Assembly (NCBI RefSeq): GCF_036365525.1
Contig: NC_090379.1
Span: 19,254,792-19,318,791, forward strand
DNA: 64,000 nucleotides
Direction of reading: 5' to 3'
Source of the DNA: Heterodontus francisci
Taxonomy: Eukaryota
A model generated the notes under the pieces. It was given only the letters and a program-made list of their open reading frames with translations, was not told the DNA's origin and did no database searches. Position 1 is the stretch's first letter. Every line of letters begins with the position of its first letter. Made by a program: the position numbers and the translations under genes. Positions 1 through 45,347 of this stretch are shown piece by piece.

Positions 1-390
1 AAAACAAAGTCCAGGATTTTCCAGACAGGGATGGAAGGGTAGGAGGGGAATGGTTTGGGTGAGGGGAAAGTTAATGGTTGAGTCACCTTGTCTCTTTAGT
101 GGGTAGCTCAGGAATGACATTTGTAGGAACCTGGGTGTTTCAATCTATTGGTTTGGGAGCAGTGCATGCTGCAAGAAGAATATAAAACAAAGAGGAGAAT
201 ATAAAATGTAACAAAATTAAATAGAAAGATAATACTAAAGAACTTAATGATTCCTTTATGGGCTTTAAACAAGGATTACTGACTTGGAAAAGCTACTGAG
301 CCTTACAGTGCAAAGGAGTTGAAATAACACACGTACCATTGAAACCAGTTGATCACTGAAGATTTTCAAAAAATGTTAAATCATGGGAAC

Positions 391-580
391 AAAATGAGAA
401 AATGCTGGGAATACACAGCAGGTCTGTCAGCATCAGAAAGGGCTGAAACAGGTTGAATTTTAGGGTTAGGTCATTATACCAGAGTGGTTGGACAAAGGGT
501 CTTGATCCTAAACATTAATCTGTCTTCTCTTTTCAGATGCTGACAGCCTAATTGTGTATTTCTGGCATCTTCTGGTTTTG
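391..580. repeat. Old degenerate inverted pair of PLE pseudo-LTR ends
   Basis: gaaaatgctgggaatacacagcaggtctgtcagcatc has an inverted counterpart gatgctgacagcct...gtgtatttctggcatcttc. Similar to the younger copy at 11856-12509. Confidence 0.55.
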
Positions 581-995
581 ATACCTAGGATATTGGCTGT
601 AGCTCTATTGATGATGCCTCACACTGTTGGGCTCAACTGACTTGCCCAAAGAAGTTTCCTTGTTGATACTATTGGCCATTAAAGAAAAATATTCATACAA
701 TCAAGGAATGTTGCAGCACAGAAGCTGACCCATTCAATCTGTGCCTGTGATTTTTTTCCCCCATATAAACTACCTAGTCTAATCCCACTCTCCTGTTTAT
801 AATCTTCCTTTACAAGCAACTTTCTAATGCCCTTTTAAAAAGAAGTAATGCACTCTGTTGTAAAAATAGCAGAGAATTCTACATTCAATAAAGTCAACAG
901 AAAGAGACACAAGAGTTATTACTTTATCACAGTATGTTATAACTGATTGTTAAAAACCAACTAAGGGCAAGCTTTAAGCTTAAATGAGTTGTTCG

Positions 996-11197: not shown

Positions 11198-11855
11198 GCA
11201 TGGGATGAGGGTTGTCCTATGAAGAGAGGCTGAGTAAATTGGGCCTATACTCTCTGGAGTTTAAAAGAATGAGAGGTGATCTCATTGAAACATACAAGAT
11301 TCTGAAGGGGCTGGACAGGGTAGACACTGAGAGGTTGTTTCCCCTGCCTGGGGAATCTAGAACACAGGGGCACAATATCAGGATAAGGGGCTGATCATTT
11401 AGGACTGAGATGAGGAGACATTTCTTCACTCAAAGGGTTGTGAATCTTTGGAATTCTCTACCTTAGAGGGTTGTGGATGCTCCATCATTGAGTATATTTA
11501 AGGCTGAGATAAACAGATTTTTGGTCATTTGGGAAATCAAGGAATATAGGGAGTGGGCGGGAAAATGGAGTTGAGGCAGAAGATCAGCTTTGATTGTATT
11601 GAAGGTTTAAGGGGCTCTTTGGACTACTCCTGCACCTATTTCTTATGTTCTTTTGTTCTGATGACCTCCTTACTCTCCAGCGAATTTGTCTGTGGACCTG
11701 TTTGTTTGTGCTGCCATATTCTGACATTGTCAACATCTTCAGGAGAGTAGGTGTGAAGACTGATTGGAACAAAAAAGTTGTGAACCATAGTGGGACTATA
11801 ATTTTAGCAGTACATAGTGACCTAATATGACAGTGTCAGGCAGCACCAGTGAATG

Positions 11856-12509
11856 TAATAAAAACAGAAAGTGGTGGAAATACTCAGCAGGTCTGGCAGC
11901 ATCTGTGGAGAGAGAAGCAAAGTTAACATTTCAGGTCTGTGACCTTTCATCAGTACTGGCAAAGGTTAGAAATGTAATAGGTTTTAAGCAAATGAAGCGG
12001 AGGGGGTAAGAGGACACAAGGGAAGGTGTGTGATAGGGCAGAGGGCAGGAGAGATTTAATAACAAAGATGTCATGGGACAAAGGCAAAGGGAATGCTCAT
12101 GGTTGTGGTGAAAGACAAAGCATTAGTCCAGAGAGAGTGTTAATAGCAGAATAATGAACAGCTTTGTCCAAAAGAACAAACATGGAAAAAACAGTTTAGT
12201 TTGTGCTTTTGGACAGAGCTGTTCATTATTCTGCTATTAACACTCTCTCTGGACTAATGCTTTGTCTTTCACCATAACCATTAGCACTCCCTTTGCCTTT
12301 GTCCCATGACATCTTTGTCATTTAATCTCTCCTGCCCTCTGCCCTATCGCTTGCTTTTCCCTTTGTCGTCTTCCCCTGCCACTTCACTTGCTTAAAACCT
12401 ATTAACTCTGCTTCTCTCTCAACAGATGCTGCCAGACCTGCTGAGTATTTCCAGCACTTTCTGTTTTTATTTCAAATTTCCAGCATCTGCAGTATTTCGT
12501 TTTTATTAT
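11856..12509. mobile_element. Fold-back (inverted pseudo-LTR pair) PLE derivative
   Basis: Arms 11856-12181 and 12199-~12470 are reverse complements around a 17-nt spacer. TSD agcaccagtgaatg (11842-11855) and agcaccaatgaacg (12510-12523). Confidence 0.85.
11921..11957 (-). ncRNA. Minimal type I hammerhead ribozyme motif (PLE type)
   Basis: Minus strand: AGTA-CTGATGA-A-AGGTC-ACA-GACCT-GAAA-TGTT-AACT. Confidence 0.6.
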
Positions 12510-13175
12510 AGCACCAATGAACGGTTATGTGCAAGGCCACTGGTTGTCAATGTTCACAGAATGGATGGAATTAATACTGATAAAAATCCTGGAATCCAAC
12601 GTTTTACTCTGAAGTCACCATAAAGCAGTAGCCATGGTTCTACACAATGAGCTCACTGGTGAAGCAAGCATAAGAATGTGGGAAACGACAAGGATTCATG
12701 CAAGCTCAGTGATTCCCTGAATTTCTTATGTCAGCTTAATATCTTAAACATTCCAAATTTTTGCCACTACTATCCTCCCTGGAAGACTGTTCCCTACATT
12801 TATCATTCTAAGAATAAAAACATTTTTTCCTAATACCTGTTTTAAAACTATTTCTTACTAATTTAAAGTTGTGTCCCTCCGGCCATGTTTCTTGGCTGAA
12901 TTTTAAGTAATCTTTTGAGTTAATTTTTTTCTGCACCATTTAATATTTTATCTACCTCAATTAAGTCACCCTGAACTGACTTCTTCTAGACTGTGGAACT
13001 TAAATTTCTCTAATCTTCCTCATAACTTACTGCCTTTACTCTTGCACCCTCTCTAGTGCTTGTTTATATCTGTGTATGTATATAATATATATATTGATAG
13101 ATATAATGTTTATTTTTATTAGAGTATATGATTCATAATCAATTGACATTAAAACCAGCTTGCTTTTTGTTCCAG

Positions 13176-13669
13176 GAAACTAATGAGCTATTAGTGAAAG
13201 AAAAAGTGTCACACTCGAGGCAGCAGAGAAAAAAGATCAATGAGCTTCAAAGGAAAGTGGAGAACCTAGAGAAAGCACTGGGATACATGGCATCTGAGTT
13301 TGAGGCAGAAAAACAGGAGATCAAACGAGAAACTGAAAGAAAAATGGCAACCCACCAGGTAGAGATTGCTAGGCTGCAGGCAGTGATTAACTTGAAAGAC
13401 AAAGAGATGAACCGGGTGAAGAAGCTGGCCAAAAATATCCTGGACCAGCGCACTGAAGTGGAACTGTTCTTCCTGCAAGCCTTAGATGAAGTGAGGCAGC
13501 AGATCTTCCATAGTCAGGCTCACTACAAGCAGGCGGCCCGAATCGCATATCAGAGATTAATGCTGAAGGCACATGCTGGCAAGGAGGATTATCCCAAAAT
13601 CAGGACCTTCAACAAAAGCGAGCATAGCACAAACTGTGTGTACCAAGATATGGAAGAAGCTGATAGATG
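13176..13669 (+). CDS. BBOF1: BBOF1 large internal coding exon
   Basis: Acceptor tttttgttccag, donor gtatgt. Encodes ETNELLVKEK...KDKEMNRVKKLAKNILDQRTEVELFFL...YPKIRTF...HSTN, diagnostic of BBOF1. Confidence 0.96.
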
Positions 13670-15167
13670 GTATGTCAATGTTTTTAAGCCTACTTTACTT
13701 TGCATGACGACACATATAAGGTGATATTGACTATAATCTCAGATTTCCGAGCTATCACTTGAATCTTTTGAAATTCCTGTTGCCATCAGTGATAGAATGG
13801 TAACGTGCACGTGCAATTCCCAACCTTGATTAGATTCAGAAATGCACGCCCTTAATCATGTACAAATCAGCCAGTAAATTTAGGGGATTAAGAAATACAG
13901 TATAAATTGCAAAGCTTCAGAACTTGCTGGTCAATTTACGTCACTTTGTTGTTTGCTTCTCACAAATGGCATCTTGTCCTCAACCTTGTTGGATTTTCAC
14001 ATTAATTCTCTGTTAAACTCACCATGGTAAGTTAAGTCTGGTATTTAACAATGCAAGTTCTTTTTTTAACGATGCAGTAATTGTTTATACAATACCAATC
14101 AACCTGTGGCCCAATTTAAACTGTGGAATATTATTCCTTCAGGTGGTAATGGTTGTCAGATTTTAAAAATGTAAATCTTTAAAAAAAAAGTAATTTTCCT
14201 TTCTGTCTTTATATTTCCTCTTTCAATCTTTCCTTCTGCTTTATTTTTCGTTCTGCACCTGATTTAACTCTAATTCACCTTTCTTCTCCGTCACTCTGCT
14301 GAATCTTTCTCAATTCTTAAAACTCATTGGTTAAGGAGGGACACTGATGATCCCATTGTTCACTGAGTTCCCAGATGCCCTGTTGCCATCGCTATCTCCG
14401 TGTCGGTTTGCACTTCCAGCATGTTAGAGCAGAAACATTTGGAGGTGAAGGGTGCCAAAAAGGGTCGAACTAATAGTATGAGACACACCACTCCAGAAAG
14501 TTCCAGCCCATGATGCTTCTCTAACATAATAAGGAAAGTGTTTTGTTCAAATGAGTCACTGTGGAACATCAGAGAGAATGAGAGTTTCCTGGAGTTCAGT
14601 ATAGTGGATAGGTGGCAATCTGGAAGAGTAGGGAGAGGCAGGAAGTGCAGGAGTCTTCAGATGTGTGCCTCTTTCAAACCGGTACTCAGCATTGGAGATT
14701 GCTGGGAGTGACGACACCTTGAAGGAGTGTAATCCTGACCATGGCAGCAATGGGCAAGGGACTGCACAGGAGGGAACAGCAAAGTACAGAAATGCAATCA
14801 TTGAAGGAGATTTCATTGTTAGAGGGACAGTTAGATGTTTCTGTAACTGTCATTGTGAGTCCCACATGGTGTGTTGCCTCTCTGGTGTCAGGGTAAAGGA
14901 TATCACCGTGAGAGCACAGAATATTCTGCAGAGAGAAGGAGATGAGCCAGAAGTTGTGGTACACATTGGTACTAAAGATATAGCAAGGGCAGGTATTGAG
15001 GTCCTACGGTCAGATTTTCAGGAGCTAGGGAGGATGTTGAAAAGTAGGACCTCGAAGGCAAGCTCTTGATTACTCCCAGTGCATTGTGCTCGTGAGAGTA
15101 GAAATAGGAAAATAGGGAGGATCAATGTGTGGTTTGAGACATGGTGTAGGAGTGAGGGCATCAGATT

Positions 15168-18087: not shown

Positions 18088-20448
18088 CAGACAAGGGGAA
18101 CCCTGTCGCTGTTCTGGGAGGGAGGGAAAGGGGTGAGGGCAGAAGTGCGGGAAATGGGTCGGACACAGTCGAAGGCCACATCAACCACAATGCGGGAGAA
18201 TCCTTAGTTGAGGAAAAAGGAAGACATATCAGAGGTGCTGTTGTGGAAGGATGCATCAGAACAGATGTGTCGGAGACGGAGAAACTGGTAGAATGGAATG
18301 GAATCCTTACAGGAGGCTGGGTGCGAGGAAATGTAATCAAGGTAGCCTTGGGAGTCAGTGGGCTTATAATAAATATTAGTGGACAGCCTATCCTCAGAGA
18401 TGGAGACAGAGAAGTCTTGGAAGGGAAGGAAAATGTCAGAGATAGAACCTGTGAAGGTGAGACAAGGGTGGAAATTGGAAGCAAAGTTGATGAAATTTTC
18501 CAGTTTGGGACGAGAGCTGGAAGCGGCACCAATACAATCATAAGTGTAACAGAAAAAGTGTTGGGGAAGGGGGCCTGAGTAGGACTGGAACAAGGAATGT
18601 CCAACATACCCCACAAAAAGACAGGCATAACTAGGACCCATACGGGTACCCGTAGCAACCCGTATCTGGAGGAAGTGAGTGGAGTTGAAGGAGAAGTTGT
18701 TCAATGTGAGAACAAGTTCAGCCAGGCGGTGGAGGGTGGTGGTGGATGGGGACTGGTTGGGCCTCTGTTCAAGAAAGTAGTGGAGAGCCCTCAGTCCATC
18801 TTAGTGGCGGGCGGAGGTGTAGAGAGATTGCATGTCCATAGTAAAGAGGAGGAGGTTTGGGCCAGGAAACTGGAAACTGTGGAAATCACGGATGTAGGTA
18901 GGAAGGGACTAGACAAGGGGAGATGAAATAGAATCAGGATAGGAGGAAATAATTTCAGTGGTGCAGGAACAGGCTGAAATGATGGGTCTACCAGGACAGT
19001 CCTGTTTGTGGATTTTGGGAATAAGATAGAAGCGGGCTCTTTGGGGTTGCGGCACAATGAGGTGGGAAGATCTCCAGAGGGGATGAGGTCAGTGACAGTC
19101 CTGGAGACAATGGCAATGTTCGGTGCTGGGGTCATGGTCCAGGGGGAGGTAGGAAGAAGTGTCTGAGAGTTGGCACTCAGCCTCTGCAAGGTAGAGGTCG
19201 GTGCGCCAGACAACAGCACCGCCCTTGCCAGTGGGTTTGATCACAATGTCAGGGTTAGACCTGAGAGAACGGAGTGCAGCAAGTTCAGAGGGAGAAAGGT
19301 TCAAATGAGTGAAGGGGGCAGAGAAATTAAGACAGCTGATGTCATGCCGACAGTTTTCAATGAAAAGATCAAGAGCGGGTAAGAGGCCAGAGGAATGGGT
19401 CCAAGTGGAGGGAGAGAACTGGAGGTGGATGAATGGGTCTGCTAGTTTGGTGGAGGACTCCTGGCCAAAGGAGTGAGCCTCGGGGCGAAGGTGACGGAGG
19501 AAAAGCTCAACATCATGTCGAGCACGAAATTCATTGAGGTGGGGGTGTAAGGGGATAAAATGAGTCCTTTGCTAAGTACATATCGTTCAGTGTCAGAGAG
19601 GGGAAGGTCAGAGGTATTGTGATACACACCAAGGGATGAGATTAGGAGAAGGGCTGGGGTCAGAGGGAAGGGAAGGGGAAGAAAGATCTGGAGGGGCGGT
19701 TGATACCCATGAGTTGCTGGAGCTTGCGTTCCTTGACATTTGAAAGAAAAAGAAAAAGTTTTTTGTTAATGCATCGGATAAGGCAAAGGATGAAATGAAA
19801 TTGTGGTGCAGGACAGCTTTGAGTTAGGGTGAGTCGGTGCTGCTGGAGAGAGAGGTCAAGTGTGTACAGGTGCCGGTGCATGGCACTGAGTGTGGATCAC
19901 AGGATGCGGTGAGAACAGCAGTCTGAGGAACATCGTATGTCTCAAAGATACCTGTAATCCTGGGTGGATTCGAAATGTGAAGGAAACTTCAGTTGGAATC
20001 CACGTGGAATAAGTCGGAGTCGGAGACAGTCGCTGAGGAAAGAAATGTGGCTGTGAAAACTAGTTTTGGCAGAAACCTTATCGAACACCAGGAAGGAAAT
20101 GGAAAGCAATGAAGGTGAGCAAGGTTTTGCTTTCGTACAGAACTGTTCATTATTCTACCATTAGCACTCTCTCTGGACTCATGCTTTGTCTTTCACTGCA
20201 ACTATTTAGTACTCCATTTGCATTCTGCTCCATGACACCTCGTTATTTAATCTCTTTTCCCCCCTCTGTCCTATCACAGTCCTTCCTGGCTTGTTCTTCT
20301 TCCCTCCCCCCTTTCACTTGCTCAAAGATTGTTACAATTTTAAAGTTAACTCTGTTTCTTTCTACATAGATTTTGCCAGACCTGTTTAGTATTTCCGGCA
20401 CTTTCTATTCTCATTTCAGAGTTCCAGCATCCGCAGTATTTTCCTCTT
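18088..20448 (-). mobile_element. Penelope-like element (RT ORF decayed, 3' part missing) with inverted pseudo-LTR at about 20140-20448
   Basis: LSPSELAALRSLRSNPDIVIKPTGKGGAVVW (IKPADKG-like), NNFSFNSTHFLQ..TGTRMGPSYACLFVGY, IYYKPTDS..YLDY.SSHP.SCK.SIP..QFLRLR.ICS. Confidence 0.88.
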
Positions 20449-20511
20449 AGTAAAGAGAAAAGAGAGATGGGATGGCAATACTGATTAGGGAAGACATTGT
20501 AGTGTTGGAAA

Positions 20512-27351: not shown

Positions 27352-27475
27352 GCAAGAGGAAAGTACTGCAGATGCTGGAAATAAAAACAAAATGCTAGAA
27401 ATACTCAGTAGGTCTGGCAGCATCCCTGGAGGTAGAAAGAGTGAACGTTTCAGGTCAGTGACCCTTCATCAGAAG
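27352..27475 (-). mobile_element. Short PLE pseudo-LTR insertion with hammerhead motif
   Basis: TSD aggacaaggt (27342-27351, 27476-27485). Minus strand starts CTT-CTGATGA-A-GGGTC-ACT-GACCT-GAAAC-GTT. Confidence 0.8.
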
Positions 27476-27663
27476 AGGACAAGGTAGCTCAGTTGGTTGA
27501 ATGCTGGTCTAAATTCAAACATCAACAGTTCAGTCTTTCATCATTTCCAAGCTGAGGTGTAGTATAAGGTCACTTGCTTGCTTTCCTGCCAGGAGAGGAG
27601 AATAAAAACTGCAAAATAACATTTATATCAGCTGTCCTAAATAAAACTGTGGTTTTTTTTTAG

Positions 27664-27765
27664 CATTCATGTCGGAAAAGTGAATATCTCTGACTTAACT
27701 TGGGAGCAGAAAGAGAAAGTCTTACGTCTACTCTTTGCAAAGATGAATGGATTGAAAACAAATAG
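27664..27765 (+). CDS. BBOF1: BBOF1 internal coding exon
   Basis: Acceptor tttttttttag, donor gtatgt. Encodes IHVGKVNISDLTWEQKEKVLRLLFAKMNGLKTN, with the conserved DLTWEQKEKVLRLLFAKMNG. Confidence 0.96.
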
Positions 27766-28493
27766 GTATGTTGAACTGAAAGGTGATACCTTGATCATGA
27801 ACTCCAGATCAGATTGAGCTACAAAATTCCGAAATGGTGGCCTATACAGTAACCATCAGATTGTACACTGTGGCATATGTATAGTCCACTTCAAATTGTA
27901 CCTGTCTTCACTTCCCCGATCTATTTCATTTTTCTTGTCATTTTGCTCAGTTTTTACTAGGATCATAACTTATTCTTTCATCGACAAAATACCTAATACA
28001 GCCCACTCTTAAAGTTGGGTATTCAATCTGATAATTCCATTTTTTTAGTGCTAAATTCCCATTTTACTTTGTTACTCATAGTGCTTACTTCCAACTATTG
28101 GATAATTCAAATGTTCAGTACAAATAATTTTTCTGATTTATCAGGCGTACACTCTATGCTTACGTGTTCACTATGGACATCTCTTTAAAACTGTCAATAT
28201 ATAAATATGTCCTGATGATGGCAGTGTTCTGCTCTGTTCCTAATCTGTCAAAGAATGAAGCAGTCCATGCCCATACATTGCAAGACTTGGACAACATCCA
28301 GGCTTGGGCTGCTAAGTGGTAAGAAACACTGAGCAATGTGCCAGGCAATTACCACCTCCAACAAGAGAGAGTCTCTTGAGGGGGCATGACCATTACAGAG
28401 ATCCCACCATCAGTGTTGTGTAGAAACTTTACAGCATCAGCCATGTAAAGGTTGAGGCTAATAGAGGTCAGAAGCTGGGTATTTGTGGGGAAG

Positions 28494-28848
28494 ATGGTGG
28501 CATCATGGTAATGTCACTGGGCTAGTAATCCAGAGGCCCAGGCTAATGCCCTGGGGACATGGGTTTGAATCCCACCATGGCAGCTGAAATCAATAAAAAA
28601 AATCTGGAATTAAAAAGCTAGTCTAATGGTGTGAATGAAACCACTGTCAATTGTTGTAAAAACCCATCTGGTTCACTAAGGTTCTTTAGGGAAGGAAATC
28701 GGCCATCCTTACCTGGTCTGGCCTACATGTGACTTCAGACCCACAGCAACTGGTTGACTCTTAAATGTCCTAGCATGCCACTCAGTTTCTCAAGGGCAAT
28801 TAGGGATGGGCAATAAATGTTGGCTTTGCCTCGAATGAGTAAACAAAA
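28494..28848 (+). mobile_element. tRNA-derived SINE (SlmI/MetaSINE-like core) with LINE-B tail
   Basis: A/B-box-like head (tggcatcatgg...ggtttgaatccc), core AAAACCCATCTGGTTCACTAA..CTTTAGGGAAGGAAATC, tail caagggcaattagggatgggcaataaatg. Confidence 0.7.
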
Positions 28849-29390
28849 AATCTGTAGTGAGTGGCTCACCTGACTCCCCCGACCCTTTCCACTACATACA
28901 AGGTTCAAGTCAGATGTGTGATGGTCTATGCTCCACTGACCTGAATTGGTGCAGATGCAACAATACTCAAGAAACTCAACATCATACAGGACAAAGCAGT
29001 CCTTTTTTAAAAAATTCGTTCTTGGGATGTGAGCGTCACTGGCAAAGCCAGTATTTATTGCCCATCCCCAATTGCCCTTGAGCAGGTGAGGGTGAGCTGT
29101 TTTCTTGAACTGCTTCAGTCCATTTTGTGTAGGTGCAGCCACAGTGCTCAATCAGCATTTCATCCACCAGCTTAAACAACCACCCTTCTATCAGTGGTGT
29201 ACCAAGGCTGCAATGTCTACTTCCACAGATCAAAGGAGTCATCACAACAATACTCTCCACTACTCCTGATACAATTATCTGACATAACCACCTGAATGTA
29301 AAATTATATTTGTTGCTCCACATTTCATCTGGTGTAAGAAAGGAGGAATATCTACTATATCTACAAGATGTACTGCAGCCACTCCCAAAC

Positions 29391-29922
29391 CTGTGCACAG
29401 TTTTGGTCTCCCTATCTAAGGAAAGATACACTTGAATTGCAGGTGGTACAGCAAATGTTCACTAGATTCATTCCTGGGATGAGAGGCTTGTCCTATGCTG
29501 AGAGGCTGAGTAAGTTGGACGTATACTGTCTGCAATTTAGAAGAATGAGAGGTGATCTCATTGAAAGATACAAGATTCTGAAGGAGCTGGACAGGGTAGA
29601 CAGAGGGTGTTTCACCTGGCTGGGGAATCTAGAACATTGCGGGCACAGTCTTGGGATAAGGGGTCGATCATTTAGGACTGAGATGAGGAGAAATTTCTTC
29701 ACTCACAGGGTTATGAATCTTTGGAATTCTCTACCCCAGAGGATTGTGGATGCTCCATTATTGAGTATATTCAAGGCTTTTTGATCTCTCATGGAGTTAA
29801 GGGATATGGGGAGTGGGCAGGAAACTGGAGTTGAGGCAAAAGATCTGCCATGATCGTATTGATTAGTGGAGCAGGCTCGAGGGGCCAAGTGATCTACTCA
29901 TGCTCCTATTTCTTATGTTCTT
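29391..29922 (+). mobile_element. 5'-truncated CR1 3' end
   Basis: CAQFWSPYLRKD...RRMRGDLIE...RRNFFTHRV. Tail ttcttatgttctt. Confidence 0.88.
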
Positions 29923-31354
29923 AAAACCCTTAAATGACTTTTACCACCTAAAAGAAGGGTAACAGTGCGTGGGAACACCATCACCTCTAAGTTATCCTCC
30001 AAGTCGCACATCATCCAGACTTAGACATATATCGCAGCCGTTCCTTCATAGTCAGTGGGATAAAATCCAGTAACTCCCTACCTAACCCCATTTTAAGAGC
30101 ACCTTTCCCACAAAGGCTGCAGTAGATCAAGAGCGACCCAAACCATCTTCCCTTGACATTCAACGGTATTACCATTGCTGAACCCTCCATCATCAACATC
30201 CTGGGACTCAAAGCCCTTCCATCATCTATAAGGCACAAGTCAGGAGTGTGATGGATTATTCCCCACTTGCCTGGATGAGTGCAGTTCCAACAACTCTCAA
30301 GGAGCTCAATAACATCCAGGACAAAGCAATCTGCTTTATTGGCACCTCATCCACCAGCTTAAACATTCACTCCCTCCACCACAGGTGCACTGTGGCTGGA
30401 GTATGTACCATTTATAAGATACACTGCAGCAACTTGTAGGCTCCTTAGACAGCACCTTCCAAATGTGTGTCCCAGAAGAACAAGGGCAGCAGGCACATAG
30501 GAACACCATCACCTGCAAATTCCCCTCCAAGTCACACACCATCCTGATTTGGAAGTGTATCACTGTTCTTTCACTGTTGCTGGGTCAAAATCCCAGAACT
30601 CCCTAACAGCACTGAGTGCACCTACACCAGATGAACTTCAGCAGCTCAAGAGTTGGCCCACCATCAGCTTATTAAAGGCAATTGGGGATGGGCAATAAAT
30701 GCTGGCCTCACCAGTGACATCCCTTGAATGAATAAAAAAGGCGACAGCTCACCATCTTCTCAAGGGCAACTAGGATGGGCAGTAAATGTTGGCCTTCCCA
30801 GAAATGAACACATTTAAATTTAAAAACAAAGTCACATAAGTTTATAAGTTGACAGCTTTAAAGAGCTAATCTTACTTTCTTAAAACTCCAGCAGACGGAA
30901 ATTTGTAATGGTAAAATAGATCATTTTAAACCAATCCACTAATTCCTCAGATTAAAATATATAATGATAAAATTTCACATATTGATGGTAGACAAATGCA
31001 TTGCTCACTAAACTTAAAGTTTCGATTAGATTTGGGCATATTTTGCCACAGGCGATGTTCAATTGGTGGGAAAATTACTGATCCCAAACAGGAAATTCAT
31101 TGTAATATTACAATGAAGTTGTAATGTGTTGATGCGTACAAAATGCCCCTATGTCTGTAGGTGTAGGTGGCCTTTACTTTGAAAAGAGCCAGAGATAGGG
31201 AATTTACAGTTATATATGGAGCTGGTGACCCAACTATCACTTGTTGTGGTGAGGAGTATACCATTATTGACGAACAAAAGAGAAATCCAAGTAGCACGCT
31301 ATTATAGATTCAGGCAGTGATTTTCAGAACAACCCGAGCTATATCATGTTTAAT

Positions 31355-31980
31355 CAATTTATTGGAGTTCTTTGAAGAGTAACGGGCGCTGTGGATAAAG
31401 GGGAGCCGGTTGACGTACTGTACTTGGATTTCCAGAAGGCATTTGACAAGGTGCCACATAAATGGTTATTGTGCAAGTTAGGAACTCCTGGTACAGTGGG
31501 TAACATATTAGCATGGATAGAAGATTGGCTGGCTGGCAGAAAACAAGAGAGTATGCATAAACGGGTCCTTTTCTGATTGGCAGAATGTTACGAGTGGAGT
31601 CCCGCAGGAGCCTCAACTTTTTACATTTTACATCAATGACTTAGATGAGGGGAGCGATGGCATGGTAGCTAAATTTGCAGATGACACAAAGATAGGTAGG
31701 AAAGTATGTGGTGAAGAGGACATAAGGAGGTTGCAGACCGATATAGATAGATTGAATGAGTGGGCAAAAATCTGGCAGATGAAGTAATATGTGTGAAAAT
31801 GTGAAGTTGTTCACTTTGGCAGGAAGAATAAAAAAGCAGAGTATTTCTTAAATGGGGAACGACTGCAGAATTCCGAGGTACAAAGGGATCTAGGTGTTCT
31901 AGTGCACGAGTCACAAAAGGTTAGTATGCAGTTACAGCAAGTAATAAAGAAGGCTAATGGAATGCTATCCTTTATTACGA
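31355..31980 (+). mobile_element. CR1 RT fragment
   Basis: [17 protein letters not shown] and KFADDTK. Confidence 0.88.
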
Positions 31981-32206
31981 GGGTTAGCCCTTAGCCCCAA
32001 GAATCCACCCCTGAAGGTGACTGGGGCCAGTGTGGTGGGGGGAGTGAAAAGCAGTGGCACCTGGGACTGGCAATATATGTATGAGCCGGCACACACTTGT
32101 AGGAAGCGCTTTCTGTGGTTGCGTACTAGTTGGACATTGCATTAAATGAAACCCTATTCTGTTTATGAAGGCAATTGGATGGTCCATGGGAGCCTTGATG
32201 ACCACA

Positions 32207-34084
32207 TTTTTAAAAAATTCATTTGAGGGATGTGGGCATTGCTGGCTATGCCAGCATTTATTGCCCATCCCTAATGGCCCTTGAGAAGGTGGTGATGAGC
32301 CACCTTCTTGAACCGCTGCAGTCCATATGGGCAAGTGCACCCACAGTGCTGCTATGGAGTTCCAGGATTTTGATCCAGCGACAGTCAAGGAACAGCGGTA
32401 CAGTTCCAAGTCAGGATGGTATGTGGCTTGGAGGTGAACTTACAGATGGTGACGTTCCCATGAAACTGCTGCCCTTGTCCTTCTAGGAGGTAGAGGTCAC
32501 AGGTTTGGAAGGTGCTGTCGATGGAGCCTTGCTGCAGTGTATCTTGTAGATGGTACACATTGCTGCCACTGTGTATTGGTGGTGGAGGGACTGAATGTTT
32601 GTGGATGGGGTGCCAATCAAGCAGACTGCTTTGTCCTGGATAGTGTCGAGCTTCTTGAATGTTGTTCGAGCTGCACCCATCCAAGCAACTGGAGAGTATT
32701 CCATCACACCCCTGACTTGTGCCTTGTAGATGAACAGGCTTTGGGGAGTCAGGAGGTGAGTTACTTGCCGCAGGATTCCAAGCCTGTAACCTGCTCTTGT
32801 AGCCACGGTATTTATATGGCTACTCCAGTTCAGTTTCTGATCAATGGTAGCCCCTAGGATGTTGATGGTGGGGGATTCAGCGATGGTAATGCCATTGAAC
32901 GTCAAGGGGAGATGGATAGATTCTGTCTTGTTTGAGATAATCATTGCCTGGCACTTGTGTGGCGTGAATGTTACTTGCCACTTATCAGCCCAAGCCTGGA
33001 TATTGTGCAGGTCTTGCTGCATTTCTACACTGACTACTTCAATAACTGAGGAGTCGTGAATGGTGCTGAACATTGTGCAATCATCAGCAAACATCTGATC
33101 CTCATGATTGAAGGAAGGTCATTGATGAAGCAGCTGAAGATGGTTGGGCCTAGGACACTACCCTGAGGAACTCCTGCAGTGATGTCCTGGAGCTGAGATG
33201 ATTGATCTCCACAACCATCTTCCTTTGCACTTGGTATGACTCCAACCAGCAGAGTGTTTTTCCCCGATTCCCATTGATTCCAGTTTTGCTAGGGCTCCTT
33301 GATGCCATACTCGGTCAAATGCTACCTTGATGTCAAAGGCAGTCACTCTCACCTCACCTCTTGAGTTCAGCTCTTTTGTCCATGTTTGAACCAAGGCTGT
33401 AACGAGGTCAGGAGTTGAGTGGCCCTAGCCGAACCCAAACTGAGTGTCACTGAGCAGGTAATTGCTAAGCATGTACTGCTTGATAGCACTGTCAATGACA
33501 CCTTCCATCACTTGACTGATGATCAAAAGTAGACTGATGGGACGGTAATTGGCTGGGTTGGATTTGTCCTGCTTTTTGTGTACAGGACATACCTGGGCAA
33601 TTTTTCACATTGCTGGGTGGATGCCAGTGTTGTAGCTGTACTGAAACTGAAGGCCTGCTACCCAATCCGAACCAGACAACGTGTCGCTTTCGGGTCGGGT
33701 TGGGCCCCTCTTCCAGGTCCGGCTTTTGTGTCCAGGTTGGGTCGGGCGGAGTCCAGGTCGGGCTGGACACACATGCTAAGTGCTCTGCTTGTAAGTATCG
33801 AAATTTTAAAAAAAACTTACCTGAGCTGGGAGTCCGGGACATAACAGACTGTGCAATGAGCAAGTGACATCATTATGACATCATCACGCATGCACTGCAG
33901 CTTCCTGCAGGTTCGGTGTCAGGAAGGTAAATAAAGGGATGGTTGGGTTGGGCTCGGGTCCGAGTTCTGGTCAGGTTCTTTTTCTCGACCAGAGCAGGCC
34001 TTTAACTGGAACAGCTTGGCTAGGACAGCCGCAAGTTCTGGAACATAGGTCTTCAGTACTATTGCCAGAATGTTGTCAGGGCCG
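32207..34084 (-). mobile_element. LINE family B, 5' truncated
   Basis: GPDNILAIVLK, FDIKVAFDRVWH, MFADDCT and YKAQVRGVMEYSP. Poly-A-like tail at 32207. Confidence 0.9.
33648..34004. mobile_element. hAT-type MITE
   Basis: TIRs tgaaggcctgct and agcaggccttta. 8-bp TSD actgaaac (33640-33647) and actggaac (34005-34012). TCGGG subterminal repeats. Confidence 0.85.
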
Positions 34085-35768
34085 ACATGCGTGCGGTCAA
34101 TCACACCTTTGACCTGTAGAAATCCCGCAATGGCCCCAAATCCAATGGCCTTCTCTGCCTGACTCTCAAGGTCTTTCCTTTAGTGTACATCGTCACCGAT
34201 CATCCTAAACAGAATATTAGTCGCCTCCTTGATGCAGCGTTGCACTGTGGATTGAGAGACCCCACACATGTTGCCGGTGGATCCCTGGAATGATTCAGAG
34301 GCATAAAAGTTTTGCACCATAGTAATTTTGAGGGCCACAAGCATAGGGTGACCTCCAAAACCCATTGGTTGCAAATTATCATTCAGCAGTGTGCAGAGGT
34401 GACGGCTTCTCTGGACATCCACTGTCGTCTCTGGCAGTTGCACTCAGACATCTGCAAGTATATTATCCGAGTCCTATAGACTCGCTGGTGTATCTGGGCT
34501 CTTCTTGAGCCATAGCTGCCTCTGGGGCCTACATCTGCCGGAGATGCCTCAGCATAGCAAGGGATCTAGCAAAACGGGGTGAATCATACCCATCTCTATC
34601 CTCCTCGTAATTTTGGCTTCGTTCAAAAGGTCAATTACGCCTATCTGGGCAAAGATTTGTGTTAATTTGGTTCTGCAGGATTCCGATACGAGCTCTATGG
34701 TATGGTTTGATGTTGCTTTCTCAACCTTTCAGTAAGTGTGAGCCATCATGACCATACCAATACCATTTGAATTGCCTGCACTCGACCCATCTCCTAAAAA
34801 ACCTATGTAGTTGCTGAGTTCTGCCCCCCCACCCCCAACAGTGTTCACTTTCAGAGTTCTCCCCTTCCCCCCCCCCCACCACCATAACAGTATCCACTTG
34901 CAGAGTTCCAACTTTCCTTCACATCTGCAGATTGAGTTTAGTGGCAATGTCCGATCCTTAAAAAAAAATTCACAGGATAACGCCTAACCTACGCAGGCAC
35001 CAAGGACTCTTGCCATGGTGGTGCCAGCTTTTCAAAGATGGGAAAGTGAAGGCACGAAGGTGCCGCACATCATGCAGAAGATTGCAAACACCTGGTAGGA
35101 TCGCAGCCAATTAGATACAAATGCATGCAAAACAGTAAACTACTATGATCTAAACTATGATCCCGTTGCAACATGGCAGAGATGCTGCCATGGAACCTCA
35201 CTGCCTCAGAGAAAATCGGAAACCAGCAATACAGCGTCAGGTTCCGTGGCGGATAAGTCTATGCCGATTCTCTGGTCCACCTGGCCAACAAACCCGCCTT
35301 CCAAAGGAGCATAAAATCCAGCCCTAACCTAATCAACTGCTTGCTGTGGTAACCTAATCAACTGTCTTGGCACCAACAATACTTTAGCAAATTCGGCATA
35401 ATTCTCCTGCAGCTTCTAGCTTGACACCTCTCATAAGAAATAGGAGGAGTGGGCCATTCAGCCCCTCAAGCCTGCCCCACCATTCAATAAGATCATGGCT
35501 GATCTGCCCCAGACCTTAACTCCTCTTTCGTGCCAGCTCCTCATAACCCTCAACTCCCCAATATTTCAAAAATCTATCTACCTCCTCTTTAAATACTTTC
35601 AGTGATCTAGCCTCCACAACTTTGAGGGTAGAGAATTCCAGACATTCACTACCCTCCGAGAGAAGAAATTTCTTCGCATCTCAGTTTTAAATGAGTGTCC
35701 CCTTATTCTGTAACTGTGTCCCTTAGTTCAGGATTCCCCCACTAGTGGAAACATCTTCTCAACATCTA

Positions 35769-35871
35769 GTTCTGAAAAAGGGTCACTGACCTGAAACGTT
35801 AACTCTGCTTCTCTCTCCACAGATGCTGCCAGACCTGCTGAGTATTTCCAGCATTTCTTGTTTTTATTTCT
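35769..35871 (+). mobile_element. Short PLE pseudo-LTR insertion with mutated hammerhead motif
   Basis: TSD tcaacatcta (35759-35768, 35872-35881). Reads AGTT-CTGAAAA-A-GGGTC-ACT-GACCT-GAAAC-GTT-AACT. Confidence 0.85.
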
Positions 35872-38269
35872 TCAACATCTACCCTGTCAAGCCTCCTCGG
35901 AATCTTGTACATTTCAATAAGATCATCCCTCATTCTTCTAAACTCTAATGAGTAAAGGCCTAACCAGTTTAGCATTTCTTGAAAAGTCAACTCTTTCATC
36001 CCAGGAATCAGCCTAGTGAATCTCTTTTGAACTGCCTCCAATGCCAGTATATCCTTTCTTAAATACGGGGACCAAAACTCTACAGTCCTCCAGGTGCAGT
36101 TTTACCAACACTCTGTGCAGTTGTAACAAGACTTCCCTATTTTTAAACTCCAACCCCCTAGCAATAAAGGCCAAAATTCCATTTGCCTTCTTAATTACTT
36201 GCTGTACCTGCATGTTAACTTTGTGTTTCATGCCCAAGAACACCCAGATCCCTCTGTGCTGCACATTTTTGAAGTCTCTCTCCATTTAAATAATAGTCTG
36301 CCTTTTGATTCTTCCTACCAAAGCGCATGACCTCACACTTTGCTACATTAAACTCCACCTGCCAAGTTTTTGCCCACTCACTCAACCTATCTATATCCCA
36401 TTTGCAGATTCCTCATGTACTCATGACAACATGCCCTTCCACCTATTTTTGTACCGTCAGCAAATTTGGATATATTGCACTCTACCCTTCCTTCAAATCA
36501 TTAATATAGATAGTAAACGATTGAGGCCCTAGGACTGATCCTTGTGGCACTCCACTAGTTACATCCTTCCAACCTGAAAAAGACCCATTAATCCCGATTC
36601 TCTGTCTGCTGTGAGTCAACCAATGCTCAAGCCGTGCTAATACATTACCCCCAATACCGTGAACTCCTATCTTGTGCAATAATCTTTTATGTGGCACCTT
36701 ATCGAATGCCTTCTGGAAATCCAAATACACTACATCTACCGGTTCCTCTTTTATAAACTCTGCTTGTTATATCCTCAAACAACTCTAGCAAATTTGTCAA
36801 ACATGATTTCCCTTTTACAAAACCATGTTGACTCTGATTGATTACGTTAAGCTTTTCTAAATGTCCTGCTATTTCTTCCTTAATAATGGACTCTAGCATT
36901 TTCCCAACGACCGATGTTAGGCTGACAGGCCTATAGTTTCCTGCTTTTTGTCTCCCTCCCTTCTTGAACAGGGAGGTCACATTAGCGGTTTTCCAATCCA
37001 GTGAGTTCTGGAATATTTCGACCCTTGCCTCCACTATCTCTGCAGCCACTTCCTTTAAAACCCTTGGATGTAGGCCATCAGGTCCTGGCGACATGTCTGC
37101 CTTTAGTCCCATTAGTTTGTCAAATACTTTGTCCCTCGTGATAGAGACCAAGATCTTACCTCCCATTAGCTCCTTGCTTATCTAATATCTGTGGGATGTT
37201 TATAGTATCCTCCACCATGAAATATTGGTTTAAATTATCTGCCATTTCCCTGTTCCCTGATATAAGTTCCCCAGTCACATCCTCCAAGGGTTGCACGCTC
37301 ACTTTAGCTATACCTATAGAAGCTCTTGCTGTTTGTTTTTATATTTCTTGCCAATTTACTTTCATAATCAATTTTCTCTTAGTTTTTTAGTCATCTGCTG
37401 CTGGTTCCTAAAAAATTCCTAATTCTCTGGCCTACCACTGGCTTTTGCTTCTTTGTATGTCTTAGTTTTTGATTGGATACTCTCCTTGACTGCCTTTGTT
37501 ATCCACGGTTGGTTCATCCCTCTCATCGAGTCCTTCTTTTTGACCAGCATAAATTTTTGCTGAGTGTTATGAAATATCTGCCTAAATGTCTGCCACTGCT
37601 CATCCACTGACCTTCCCATTAGTCTATTTTCCCAGTCCATTTTAGACAACTCTTTCTTCATATCTCTAATTGCCCTTGTTTAAGTTGAGGACACTGGTTT
37701 GACACCTGAGTTGCTCACCCTCAAACTGAATTTGAAATTCTACCATGTTGTGATTATTACCCCCTAGAGGATCCTTAACTACGATATCTGTTATTAATCC
37801 TACCTCATTACACATTACTAGATCTAAAATAGACTGTTTCCTGGTAGGTTCCAAGTAACAATCCCTGATGCACTCTACAAATTCATCTTCCATGTTACCT
37901 CTGCCAATCTGATTTGTCCGCTCAATATGCAGATTAAAATCACCCATGACAATTGTAGCGCCCTTCTTACATGCCTCCGTTATTTCCCAATTTATACTTT
38001 GTCCTACAGTGACAACTCTTCGGAGGCCTATAGATGGCTCCCACCCGTGACTTCTTCCCCTTGCTATTCCTTATTTCCACCCAAACTGATTCCACATCAC
38101 TGTCTATTGCACCTGTATCACTACTCACCACCGCACTGATACCTTCCTTTATTAATAAAGTTACCCCACCTCCTTTTCATTTTTGCTTATTTTTCCGGAA
38201 CGTCGAATCCCGTTGAATATTGAGTTCCCAGTCTTGGTCACCCTGCAACCACGTCTCTGTAATAGCTAT

Positions 38270-38403
38270 AATAAAAGCAAAATACTGCGGATGCTGGAAA
38301 TCTGAAATAAAAACAAGAAATGCTGGAACCACTCAGCAGGTCTGGCATCTGTGGAAAGAGAAGCAGAGTTAACGTTTCGGGTCAGTGACCCTTCTTCGGA
38401 ACC
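38270..38403 (-). mobile_element. Short PLE pseudo-LTR insertion with hammerhead motif
   Basis: Perfect 15-bp TSD ctctgtaatagctat (38255-38269, 38404-38418). Minus strand GGTT-CCGAAGA-A-GGGTC-ACT-GACCC-GAAAC-GTT-AACT. Confidence 0.88.
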
Positions 38404-42128: not shown

Positions 42129-43661
42129 GTAAGAATCTAAAACATAATAGTGCCTTGCAAGTTATTGTTGGGGATTAAAATTCAGCCATGATGTAATTTA
42201 ATTCTGTATTTTCATGAGCATAGCAATTAAGAGTTACCACACATTATGGGGGATGCAGCAGCACAAATGATTGAAGCTATCCACATGTAGGAGATGGTGG
42301 TGGCCTCAAGATGGTGATTTGCCCAAGCCTGTGTTTCCATCTTTCCCGCACCCAGATGGCCTATTACTTGTACTGGCACCAACAATACTTTAGCAAGTTC
42401 GGCATAATTCTCTTGCAGCTTCTAGCTTGACACTTCTCCCATAATTCTGTTACTTAGTATATCTTAGCAGATAGCAAAGCAGCTGTTCATCTTGAAGGTT
42501 GTTGGGTGCATTACTGGGGACAGGACAGGGGGGAGGGGGTCAGAGAAACCTCCAACTTCCATTTTTTTTTTAAATTGCAAGTATTTCCTCTTTGGTGGTT
42601 TTCCCAAGCTGCAGGGCATTTGTGGTTGAAAGCAGTCCAGATCTGCCAGTACTGCGCAGAAACTAGTATAGGGAGTGGGAAAGGGGAAGAAACTCCTCAT
42701 CTGATTTTATTCTCACCTCACCCCCACTACTGAAGTCGGGAATCAGACGCAGTGTAAATAATAGAAACAAACCCAGAATCCCACCACTCCCTGTCCGTTC
42801 TCCAATATTTATTGCTGGGGAAATTTTAAAGACTGAAAATCAAAAGAACTGGCCAGCATATAAATACAGAAAATGCTGGAGCTTCACAGTAGGCCAGTCA
42901 ACACCCAAGAGAAAAATGTTGGCAACTATTCCTGTGGGGCCCTTTATCAGAACCACTGAGTGACTTGTGTATTCCCAACATTTTTCTTTTTATCTCTATT
43001 TATGCAGTCATAGGGGAGTAGAGGGGTAGTTTAATACATTGTAACTCACTAAAAGATTAGAAATGCATCACATAGAATGTGTGTTGGGTAAATGCTATTT
43101 CCTACTGACTAACCCACATTTTTGATTATTTTCCGATGTACATTACAGTGGGGAATGGACTTCCATGGTGGGAGTGAATCACAACACATGGAAGGTGAAC
43201 CAATACTCCCTACTGGAGTGGAAACATCATGGGTGGCCAGTATAGTACTTTCCTAAAACTATAAGAAATGTTCCTCCCATTTTTAAAACTCTTCCTGCAA
43301 CATCTCAATCCCTCAACCAAAGGTACTCTAAAACCTAGGTCGTAGACAAGAGTTGATCTCCGCTCAGTGCCACTATTGAGAACAAAAGTTCAGCATACAA
43401 AAATGAATGCATTTGCAAATCAAACGAGTAATATATGAACGGAGAACATTTCACCACATTGATAAGCTCTATATATTAGTCTCAAGAAGTTAATGAACAG
43501 ATTCTAGGCAGGGCAGCTGGACAGAAACTTAGCAATTTAGGAAGTTGAGGACTAGGTCTGTTCAGGGTTTCTGCACAATTCTAATGGCTTATTTTTGTTT
43601 CTACTGTTTTGTGTTTCCATCTCATTTCAAAAGTCTGACTTAAACATTATTTTCTTCACAG

Positions 43662-45179: not shown

Positions 45180-45347
45180 AAAAACAGATTAACATTTCAG
45201 GTCAATGACCCTTCATCAGATCAATTCTGAAGGGGCATTGACCTGAAATGTTTTTCTCTCTCCACTCAGCTGTCAGACCTGCTGAGTATTTCTGGCATTT
45301 TCTACTTTTATTTCATATTTCCAGTATCTGTAGTATTTTGCTTCCCA
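45180..45347. mobile_element. Short fold-back PLE derivative with two head-to-head hammerhead-like motifs
   Basis: aacatttcaggtcaatgacccttcatcag-atcaatt-ctgaaggggcattgacctgaaatgtt. Approximate TSD tattaagctaca / tattaagattaca. Confidence 0.7.

Follow-up and report, generated by a model that had tools for sequence, protein, structure and literature searches.

Why should short, hammerhead-like inserts at separate sites in a shark genome all begin at the same point? The question is raised by a 64,000-nucleotide stretch of the Heterodontus francisci genome (NC_090379.1, positions 19,254,792 to 19,318,791; henceforth the window), in which an earlier note described three independent mini inserts, each with its own TSD of 10-15 bp, all starting 3-4 nt upstream of a CUGANGA core. 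Insert A (27352..27475, minus strand) carries a CUGAUGA core with C3 at 27472, has the minimal hammerhead pattern and runs to a tailed 3' end between exact 10-bp TSDs (27342-27351/27476-27485). Insert B (35769..35871, plus strand) has the core CUGAAAA, in which G8 is lost, a 3' end without the tail and an exact 10-bp TSD (35759-35768/35872-35881). Insert C (38270..38403, minus strand) is a tailed CCGAAGA variant with an exact 15-bp TSD (38255-38269/38404-38418) and, outside the TSD, a single G in place of an A of the long copy. When positions were placed at random 20,000 times, a flanking repeat of at least 10 bp (within ±3 nt) turned up 4 times. The distance from the first element base to C3 is 3, 3 and 4 nt in A, B and C, respectively. 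The insert coordinates, TSDs and starting point thus stand as described; of the three inserts, A alone has the literal CUGANGA motif. The claim of two 3' end positions about 35 nt apart was likewise borne out, B having the short end and A and C ending ~33 nt further on.

The same boundary recurs elsewhere in the window. Insert D (45180..45347) is a head-to-head insert composed of a 40-nt minus arm (45182-45221) and a tailed plus arm (45225-45347), both beginning at the shared boundary, with cores facing apart over a 7-nt spacer (45220-45226). This leaves 3-4 nt per arm and places the fold-back point where the earlier note had put it; the TSD of D is just 7 bp, exact (45168-45174/45348-45354). 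An old, diverged mini copy (H, 42860..42954, minus strand, profile E 0.007) also starts at the boundary, and no clear TSD was found around it. An old head-to-head mini pair at 384..585 is centred approximately there, is too diverged for base-level placement and yielded no TSD. Longer copies, absent from the earlier note, lie at 11854-12509 and 20120-20452. Arm E (11854..12194, minus strand) is tail-less, with a hammerhead pattern whose C3 is at 11953 and ~240 nt of upstream sequence. It is head-to-head with the tailed arm F (12199..12509, plus strand), whose hammerhead core is deleted and whose sequence picks up again at the predicted cleavage site; a 12-bp TSD with one mismatch (11842-11853/12510-12521) flanks the pair. 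Four weak Rfam microRNA matches sit on the E+F inversion centre. Arm G (20120..20452, plus strand), tailed and also core-deleted, is head-to-head with the start of an ORF. The window therefore holds inverted arrangements at E+F, G+ORF and D, with TSDs of 7-15 bp, and the tail is optional, being missing from B and E and present in A, C, D, F and G.

To what family do these copies belong? One profile built from the window copies recovers the minis together with three arms ~230 nt longer. The decayed ORF beside arm G (18090..20124, minus strand) matches residues ~8-700 of ~890-residue homologues with RT and GIY-YIG domains, with E values down to 1e-176 against RT-bearing homologues and with sharks and rays as the best named matches. 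Pfam assigned no family to three ORF pieces from the window; GIY-YIG is missing from this ORF, which ends near residue 700, and was found in two of four homologues scanned. The ORF adjoins the inverted arm G, and the window holds no same-orientation ORF-pLTR junction. Sequence identity with the longer copies and adjacency to this ORF argue that A, B and C belong to a Penelope-like element (PLE) of the shark, being pieces of its terminal repeat (pLTR), in which the ribozyme motif lies, and not a separate mobile family. We take the element, from resemblance in a protein motif, to belong probably to the Neptune clade and thus to differ from the anole Poseidon. The family is very abundant (84,044 contigs aligned in one run); scans with the copy pattern gave no match in viral or metagenome contigs, and a single match in genome contigs was a bacterial locus, taken as chance. 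An ATG within the core opens a reading frame that runs through the long copy E, a point of likeness to the anole element. Short peptides of arm E, compared against 120 homologues, produced no significant match, and a peptide search with copy C gave two matches among five candidates. The match of the Heterodontus model P0121 begins at the same 'GSEEGS' and was not counted as evidence, because a mini insert and a splice junction are indistinguishable there. The 'LMKG.RP' end of P0114 is a lead by eye only.

We probed the boundary beyond the window in read data, using arm E, which ends at about -230 from the boundary, as the reference; 16 runs with a small share were left out of the evidence. In a capture library (X21; 60,178 raw reads aligned), ~18-19% of the DNA reads that reach the ribozyme stop at the boundary and ~55% continue past it. 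The two largest listed piles of loose ends on the 5' side lie at 11948 (2,331 reads) and 11953 (2,128 reads), with unrelated flank beyond, and depth falls by 4.2% per nt across 11945-11954 as against 1.5-2.0% per nt on both sides. Contigs from a separate sample (X1) contribute 762 ends at 11953. Base precision is limited, since reference mismatches stack ends of 11953-11956 on one position. Seven of the opposite-strand joints listed end in 11947-11957. The boundary edge takes part in six of them (21, 9, 4, 2, 2 and 2 X1 contigs), and the other, 11953-12040, comes from one X18 contig. The 5' boundary is thus a real mode on a broad background, with most copies ending elsewhere: the non-random start proposed for the three inserts holds genome-wide in this form, and read ends are not spread uniformly. 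The boundary is common to two sequence variants, of CUGA and CCGA type, and hence does not derive from one master copy. We did not find it in the literature searched on PLE and hammerhead elements. A fold-back at 11927-11927 (51 X21 reads, no contigs) may be a library artefact.

These data bear on the suggestion that the minis form a discrete unit in their own right, SINE-like or retrozyme-like and non-autonomous, with mini copies giving rise to further mini copies. Six of the eight family insertions in the window do begin at the boundary, and non-autonomous PLE derivatives exist (bioRxiv 10.64898/2026.07.22.740005). However, we consider such a unit highly improbable. None of the 21 window matches to the B box GWTCRANNC falls in A, B or C (one lies at the centre of D, and the total is at chance level), Rfam gave no match to a tRNA-, 5S- or 7SL-derived head in the window at E<=1, and no tandem array of hammerhead units is among the three TRF rows for the window. 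The minis are several variants of 76-91% identity, the unit end is not the cleavage site, and the anole protein needs RNA past the tail (PMC11167929), which the minis lack. A self-amplifying SINE is further contradicted by the longer copies, by the reads that overrun the boundary and by its presence in two variants. A retrozyme delimited by self-cleavage was rejected on position. Non-LTR retrozymes are likewise non-coding and pLTR-related with a type I hammerhead (PMC7229834; bioRxiv 10.64898/2026.07.22.740005), but they are tandem, mostly larger and form circular RNA with canonical ribozymes, whereas the shark minis are single, minimal and often core-mutated. Nor do two 3' ends signal a new unit: an optional 30-40 nt tail is a known PLE feature (PMC11167929).

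Does the ribozyme itself set the boundary? Rfam returned no hammerhead in the whole window at E<=1, and the label rests on the minimal-hammerhead pattern of PMC4209133. The accessible part of that report (Cervera & De la Pena 2014) describes solo minimal hammerheads of truncated PLEs, the minimal type I having a 4-bp helix I, an extra base before helix II and a palindromic ACGU replacing helix III. By this pattern the shark pLTR carries a putative minimal hammerhead, and the minis resemble those solo copies, as described there, in being minimal type I, mostly single, dispersed and in pLTRs; that part gives no start point for solo copies, whereas the shark copies have a mode at the base of helix I. 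Pairing over six rows is 96.7% for helix II and 70% for helix I, with no covariation signal, six rows being uninformative. Position led us to reject self-cleavage as the cause: from the boundary it is ~28-31 nt downstream to GUU|AAC, where cleavage is predicted. A second possibility is that RT, while copying a long RNA, comes off or changes template on arriving at the ribozyme, through a protein-bound fold or a cDNA helix I snap-back. Helix I has its 5' edge at the boundary. Of the inversion joints listed, the commonest (11916-11953, 21 X1 contigs) has the geometry that the AGTT/AACT repeat would give, and the anole ribozyme requires bound protein (PMC11167929). Yet RT, which copies 3' to 5', would approach the fold from its opposite side, and it arrives at this edge only once the whole motif is copied. 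The MFE fold of insert B yields helices I and II, RNA fold stability is no better than that of shuffles (z 0.18-1.0), and helix I is absent from the predicted cDNA folds of A, B and C, so that fold predictions do not support naked RNA or cDNA as the block. Moreover, the anole reactions, as described there, passed through the ribozyme, and the RNA end set product length. We therefore regard release or switching at the fold as unlikely: the earlier proposal of a PLE integration mechanism was right in kind, but its termination at the fold fits poorly.

The explanation we prefer, to which we give an even chance, is that RT runs off the 5' end of its template RNA, probably at the transcription start. 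It borrows from the anole Poseidon element PAc (Frangieh et al. 2024), for which PMC11167929 reports that RT initiates at two internal sites, defining a 30-40 bp tail, that an RNA truncated at its 5' end gives a shorter product, and that both strands are extended with ribozyme cleavage dispensable. In the shark copies, as in PAc, 3' ends fall at two points that lie 30-40 nt from each other and ~100-140 nt behind the ribozyme, and the extension of both strands fits the head-to-head inserts; the text consulted on PAc covers the 3' ends and describes no 5'-end mode. By analogy, the PLE's own enzyme would nick the target, copying would start at one of two internal sites ~33 nt apart (12,020 X21 reads extend into the tail), and RT would run off the 5' end of its RNA at a point 3-4 nt ahead of the core, with product length set by that end. 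The free cDNA end could then join the target to give a mini insert, a second cDNA to give head-to-head insert D, or its own complement via the 4-nt helix I repeat.

The RNA end that we infer at the boundary would be discrete and capped. Initiators follow the pattern YYANWYY. The boundary sequence CCAGTT(C), read from the window with the majority A at 11954, conforms to it and would put +1 four nt ahead of the core, but in so pyrimidine-rich a sequence motifs that resemble initiators or acceptors occur often (eight in E, seven in C). At -4, C, H and the old plus arm have G where the template has A, and the CCGA pile has a plurality G at -5; an extra 5' G has been ascribed to cap copying in L1/SVA (PMC3287187). 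The CUGA-type pile has no plurality extra G in four of four runs, which counts against a capped start. Boundary ratios were 0.39 and 0.37 in contigs of two RNA-labelled runs, whose RNA status is guessed, on a par with the 0.34 of DNA, and no RNA 5' end was seen at the boundary in the contigs of these two runs.

Could the boundary instead be a 3' splice site? The minis would then derive from PLE transcripts that had been spliced and whose first exon was just a few bases long, or from an end produced at that site. A branch-like CTAAC, pyrimidines and CAG immediately precede it, and D. virilis Penelope transcripts are mostly spliced (PMC2377424), with an intron that ends at the 5' end of helix I (PMC4209133), structurally the point where the shark boundary lies. 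That element has, as proposed for the shark, a start site inside its pLTR (PMC2377424, PMC4209133), ~120 nt upstream of the helix I point and with a 45-nt first exon, but no such exon precedes the shark minis. The TSDs abut within 0-1 nt, loose ends share no exon (agreement 0.37-0.41), inspection by eye of the 230 nt upstream revealed no canonical donor, the 15 joints listed include no CT..AC skip, and further acceptor-like sites lie downstream, making splicing quite improbable. No promoter would be needed if the pile came from ordinary 5' truncation and joining at microhomologies, or if RNA or cDNA were trimmed 5' to 3' as far as a protected edge. In register, 7 of the 10 TSD bases of A agree with the sequence upstream in the element itself (p ~0.006, uncorrected for several looks), a sign of microhomology joining that counts against run-off; background loss of 1.5-2% per nt runs throughout, and PLE microhomology junctions are on record (PMC3846280). 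But such homology appears in B only with gaps and is missing in C and H, and pure random truncation yields neither the 2.5-fold local jump in loss nor the two arm ends of D, so we hold this reading improbable.

Run-off at an RNA 5' end, our preferred reading, bears on the origin of the solo and inverted terminal repeats of PLEs and on the role of the ribozyme; the anole work explains PLE 3' ends and not 5' ends. For annotation, the inserts belong under PLE fragments, not under a new SINE. An abundant shark family with a preferred 5' end offers a cheap test of RNA-end run-off versus a fold-induced stop. A 68-bp tandem joint in reads leaves out the hammerhead core; a tandem unit of that length, if it extends between the predicted cleavage site and the first RT start, would be a further indication, from in vivo copies, that RT copies RNA cut by the ribozyme as well. 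Tentatively, the minis may not be truncated at all but full run-off copies, from an internal RT start to a capped mRNA start overlapping helix I, the 230-nt-longer arms representing a second start. If so, PLE promoters would be preserved in shark genomes as a fossil map, and the predominance of solo terminal repeats among PLE copies would follow from internal initiation.

Three short insertions lie where the earlier note placed them, at 27352-27475 (A, minus strand), 35769-35871 (B, plus strand) and 38270-38403 (C, minus strand), each within an exact target-site duplication (TSD; 10, 10 and 15 bp); of 20,000 randomly placed intervals, 4 showed flanking repeats of this kind. As claimed, they begin 3, 3 and 4 nt ahead of C3 in a hammerhead-like core, and the head-to-head insert D (45180-45347) carries two cores pointing apart with 7 nt between them. 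The CUGANGA core ascribed to all of them is literal in A only; B is missing G8, and the corresponding sequence of C is CCGAAGA. Rfam gave no hammerhead match in the window at E<=1. The motif, composed of a 4-bp helix I, one extra base, a 5-bp helix II, GAAA and a loopless palindromic ACGU that could pair only in a dimer, agrees with the minimal hammerhead described in PMC4209133; activity is a prediction from this pattern, with the predicted cut between GUU and AAC, ~28 nt behind C3. In the long arm E (11854-12194, minus strand), the ATG inside CUGAUGA starts a frame running through the repeat (11854-11950), and an ATG-in-core frame is likewise present in the anole element; the corresponding frame in A, B and C either stops early or lacks its ATG.

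Searching the window with a profile made from seven of its copies gave 14 rows at E<=10. Eleven of them (E<=0.007) represent eight insertions, the three weakest (E 0.097-6.5) being left out of this count. Six of the eight start at the shared boundary or close to it: A, B, C, D, the old mini copy H (42860-42954, minus strand; imprecise start) and an old head-to-head pair (384-585; imprecise boundary), the last two without a clear TSD. The others are a TSD-flanked inverted pair of long arms (11854-12509), E and F (12199-12509, plus strand), and long arm G (20120-20452, plus strand), which forms a head-to-head junction with a decayed ORF (18090-20124). These three arms start within ~16 nt of one another (12194, 12199 and 20120-20126), 225-241 nt before the core, possibly a second preferred 5' end or the main start site. 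The ORF matches residues ~8-700 of ~890-aa RT plus GIY-YIG proteins, its best named matches being shark and ray proteins, and is linked to the terminal repeat (pLTR) inside the window via this inverted junction only. Penelope-like elements (PLEs) typically show inverted and solo pLTRs, TSDs and a tail of 30-40 bp that may be absent (PMC8557442, PMC3846280); PMC11167929 attributes the tail to two internal RT start sites. Given the ORF-joined long arm and these standard features, the minis are pLTR pieces, and we have little doubt that the inserts are PLE fragments. The minis behave like, and are classed as, PLE pLTR debris, and their two 3' ends are the optional tail; tests for the SINE-like and retrozyme-like units proposed earlier were negative.

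Four of the 24 sequencing runs listed were mapped against the long arm (11790-12195), with 80% likeness required: X1, X5 and X18 represent a single sample, and X21 is a capture library from a different one. Among the rows listed (another 1,527 loose-end and 188 joint rows exist), the top two 5'-side loose-end piles of X21 (60,178 reads mapped) lie at 11948 (2,331 reads, CCGA variant) and 11953 (2,128 reads, CUGA variant), a reference mismatch at 11954 pooling the ends of 11953-11956; in both, the loose letters are element-like to about -3/-4, with mixed flank beyond. Depth, which divergence also reduces, fell by 4.2% per base over 11945-11954 versus 1.5-2.0% on both flanks. The excess loss equals 18% of the 23,790 reads at 11945, the two piles hold 18.7%, and 55% of reads continue beyond about 11965. 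In X1 (84,044 contigs mapped, 16,896 partly), 762 contigs end at 11953; neighbouring mismatches at 11928, 11938 and 11945, expected to collect ends likewise and thus serving as a control, are absent among the six pile rows listed (smallest 389), presuming that these are the largest. A second X1 pile, at 11916 (745 contigs), collects ends from a stretch of ~10 nt that brackets the predicted cleavage site. The boundary is very probably a true mode, of about one read in five, over a broad background: the shared 5' end extends to reads beyond the window, but the six of eight seen in the window overstates it.

Self-cleavage as the cause of the boundary is ruled out by position. We see an even chance that it arises by run-off, in which RT would run off a template RNA whose 5' end sits there, a reading preferred because the boundary is common to both variants, both arms of D end there and the listed inversion joints converge there. 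That RNA end may be a capped transcription start. The boundary sequence CCAGTT(C) agrees with an initiator pattern, with +1 at -4, a position at which C, H and the plus arm of the old pair have G instead of A. Such a G is the expected result of cap copying (PMC3287187). Two points weigh against a capped start: the CUGA pile shows no plurality of G in any of the four runs, and initiator-like and acceptor-like motifs occur often in this sequence. RNA-labelled contigs, which cannot reveal starts, give boundary ratios equal to those of DNA. In the anole system, the product reaches from the internal start as far as the 5' end of the RNA, and no ribozyme is required (PMC11167929). That the ribozyme fold halts RT is unlikely, since RT travelling 3' to 5' has copied both helices before reaching the boundary, computed RNA folds do no better than shuffles (z 0.18-1.0) and helix I is absent from the predicted cDNA folds; run-off at an RNA end fits the data better. 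The boundary could also be a 3' splice site: the same bases make a good acceptor, and the D. virilis intron terminates at the equivalent structural point (PMC4209133, PMC2377424), but no upstream exon common to the copies was seen. At the 5' end of A, microhomology joining is supported by the TSD (27476-27485), which equals the element's upstream sequence, in register, at 7 of 10 positions.

Two observations bear on the predicted cut site. Both F and G, independent arms, lack the core, their sequence restarting <=3 nt from that site (12397-12402 and about 20340). A joint of 11923 to 11856, found in 1,688 X21 reads and 3 X1 contigs, a wide contrast that may come from capture, corresponds to a 68-bp tandem unit that begins near the cut site and extends to the tail-less end (the tail-less RT start), possibly a PLE-derived minisatellite without a ribozyme core. 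Both hint, without proving it, that cut RNA sometimes serves as template; such use was not detectable in the RNA reads of the anole study (PMC11167929).

Weak Rfam microRNA matches at 12140-12241 merely reflect the middle of the inverted pLTR pair, which might give rise to hairpin RNA. The open frame at 13107-13724 (plus strand) contains a coiled-coil-like host exon, presumably BBOF1/CCDC176-like, with no Pfam family assigned. P0121, an H. francisci peroxidase gene model, opens with the translation of a nearly identical mini insert; this is probably a PLE end that was mis-annotated or exonised.

In the literature searched, which covers neither most subscription papers nor Repbase, we found no description of 5' ends preferentially located at helix I. 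The element class is already known, and one feature of it, the preferred 5' end, is apparently undescribed and testable.
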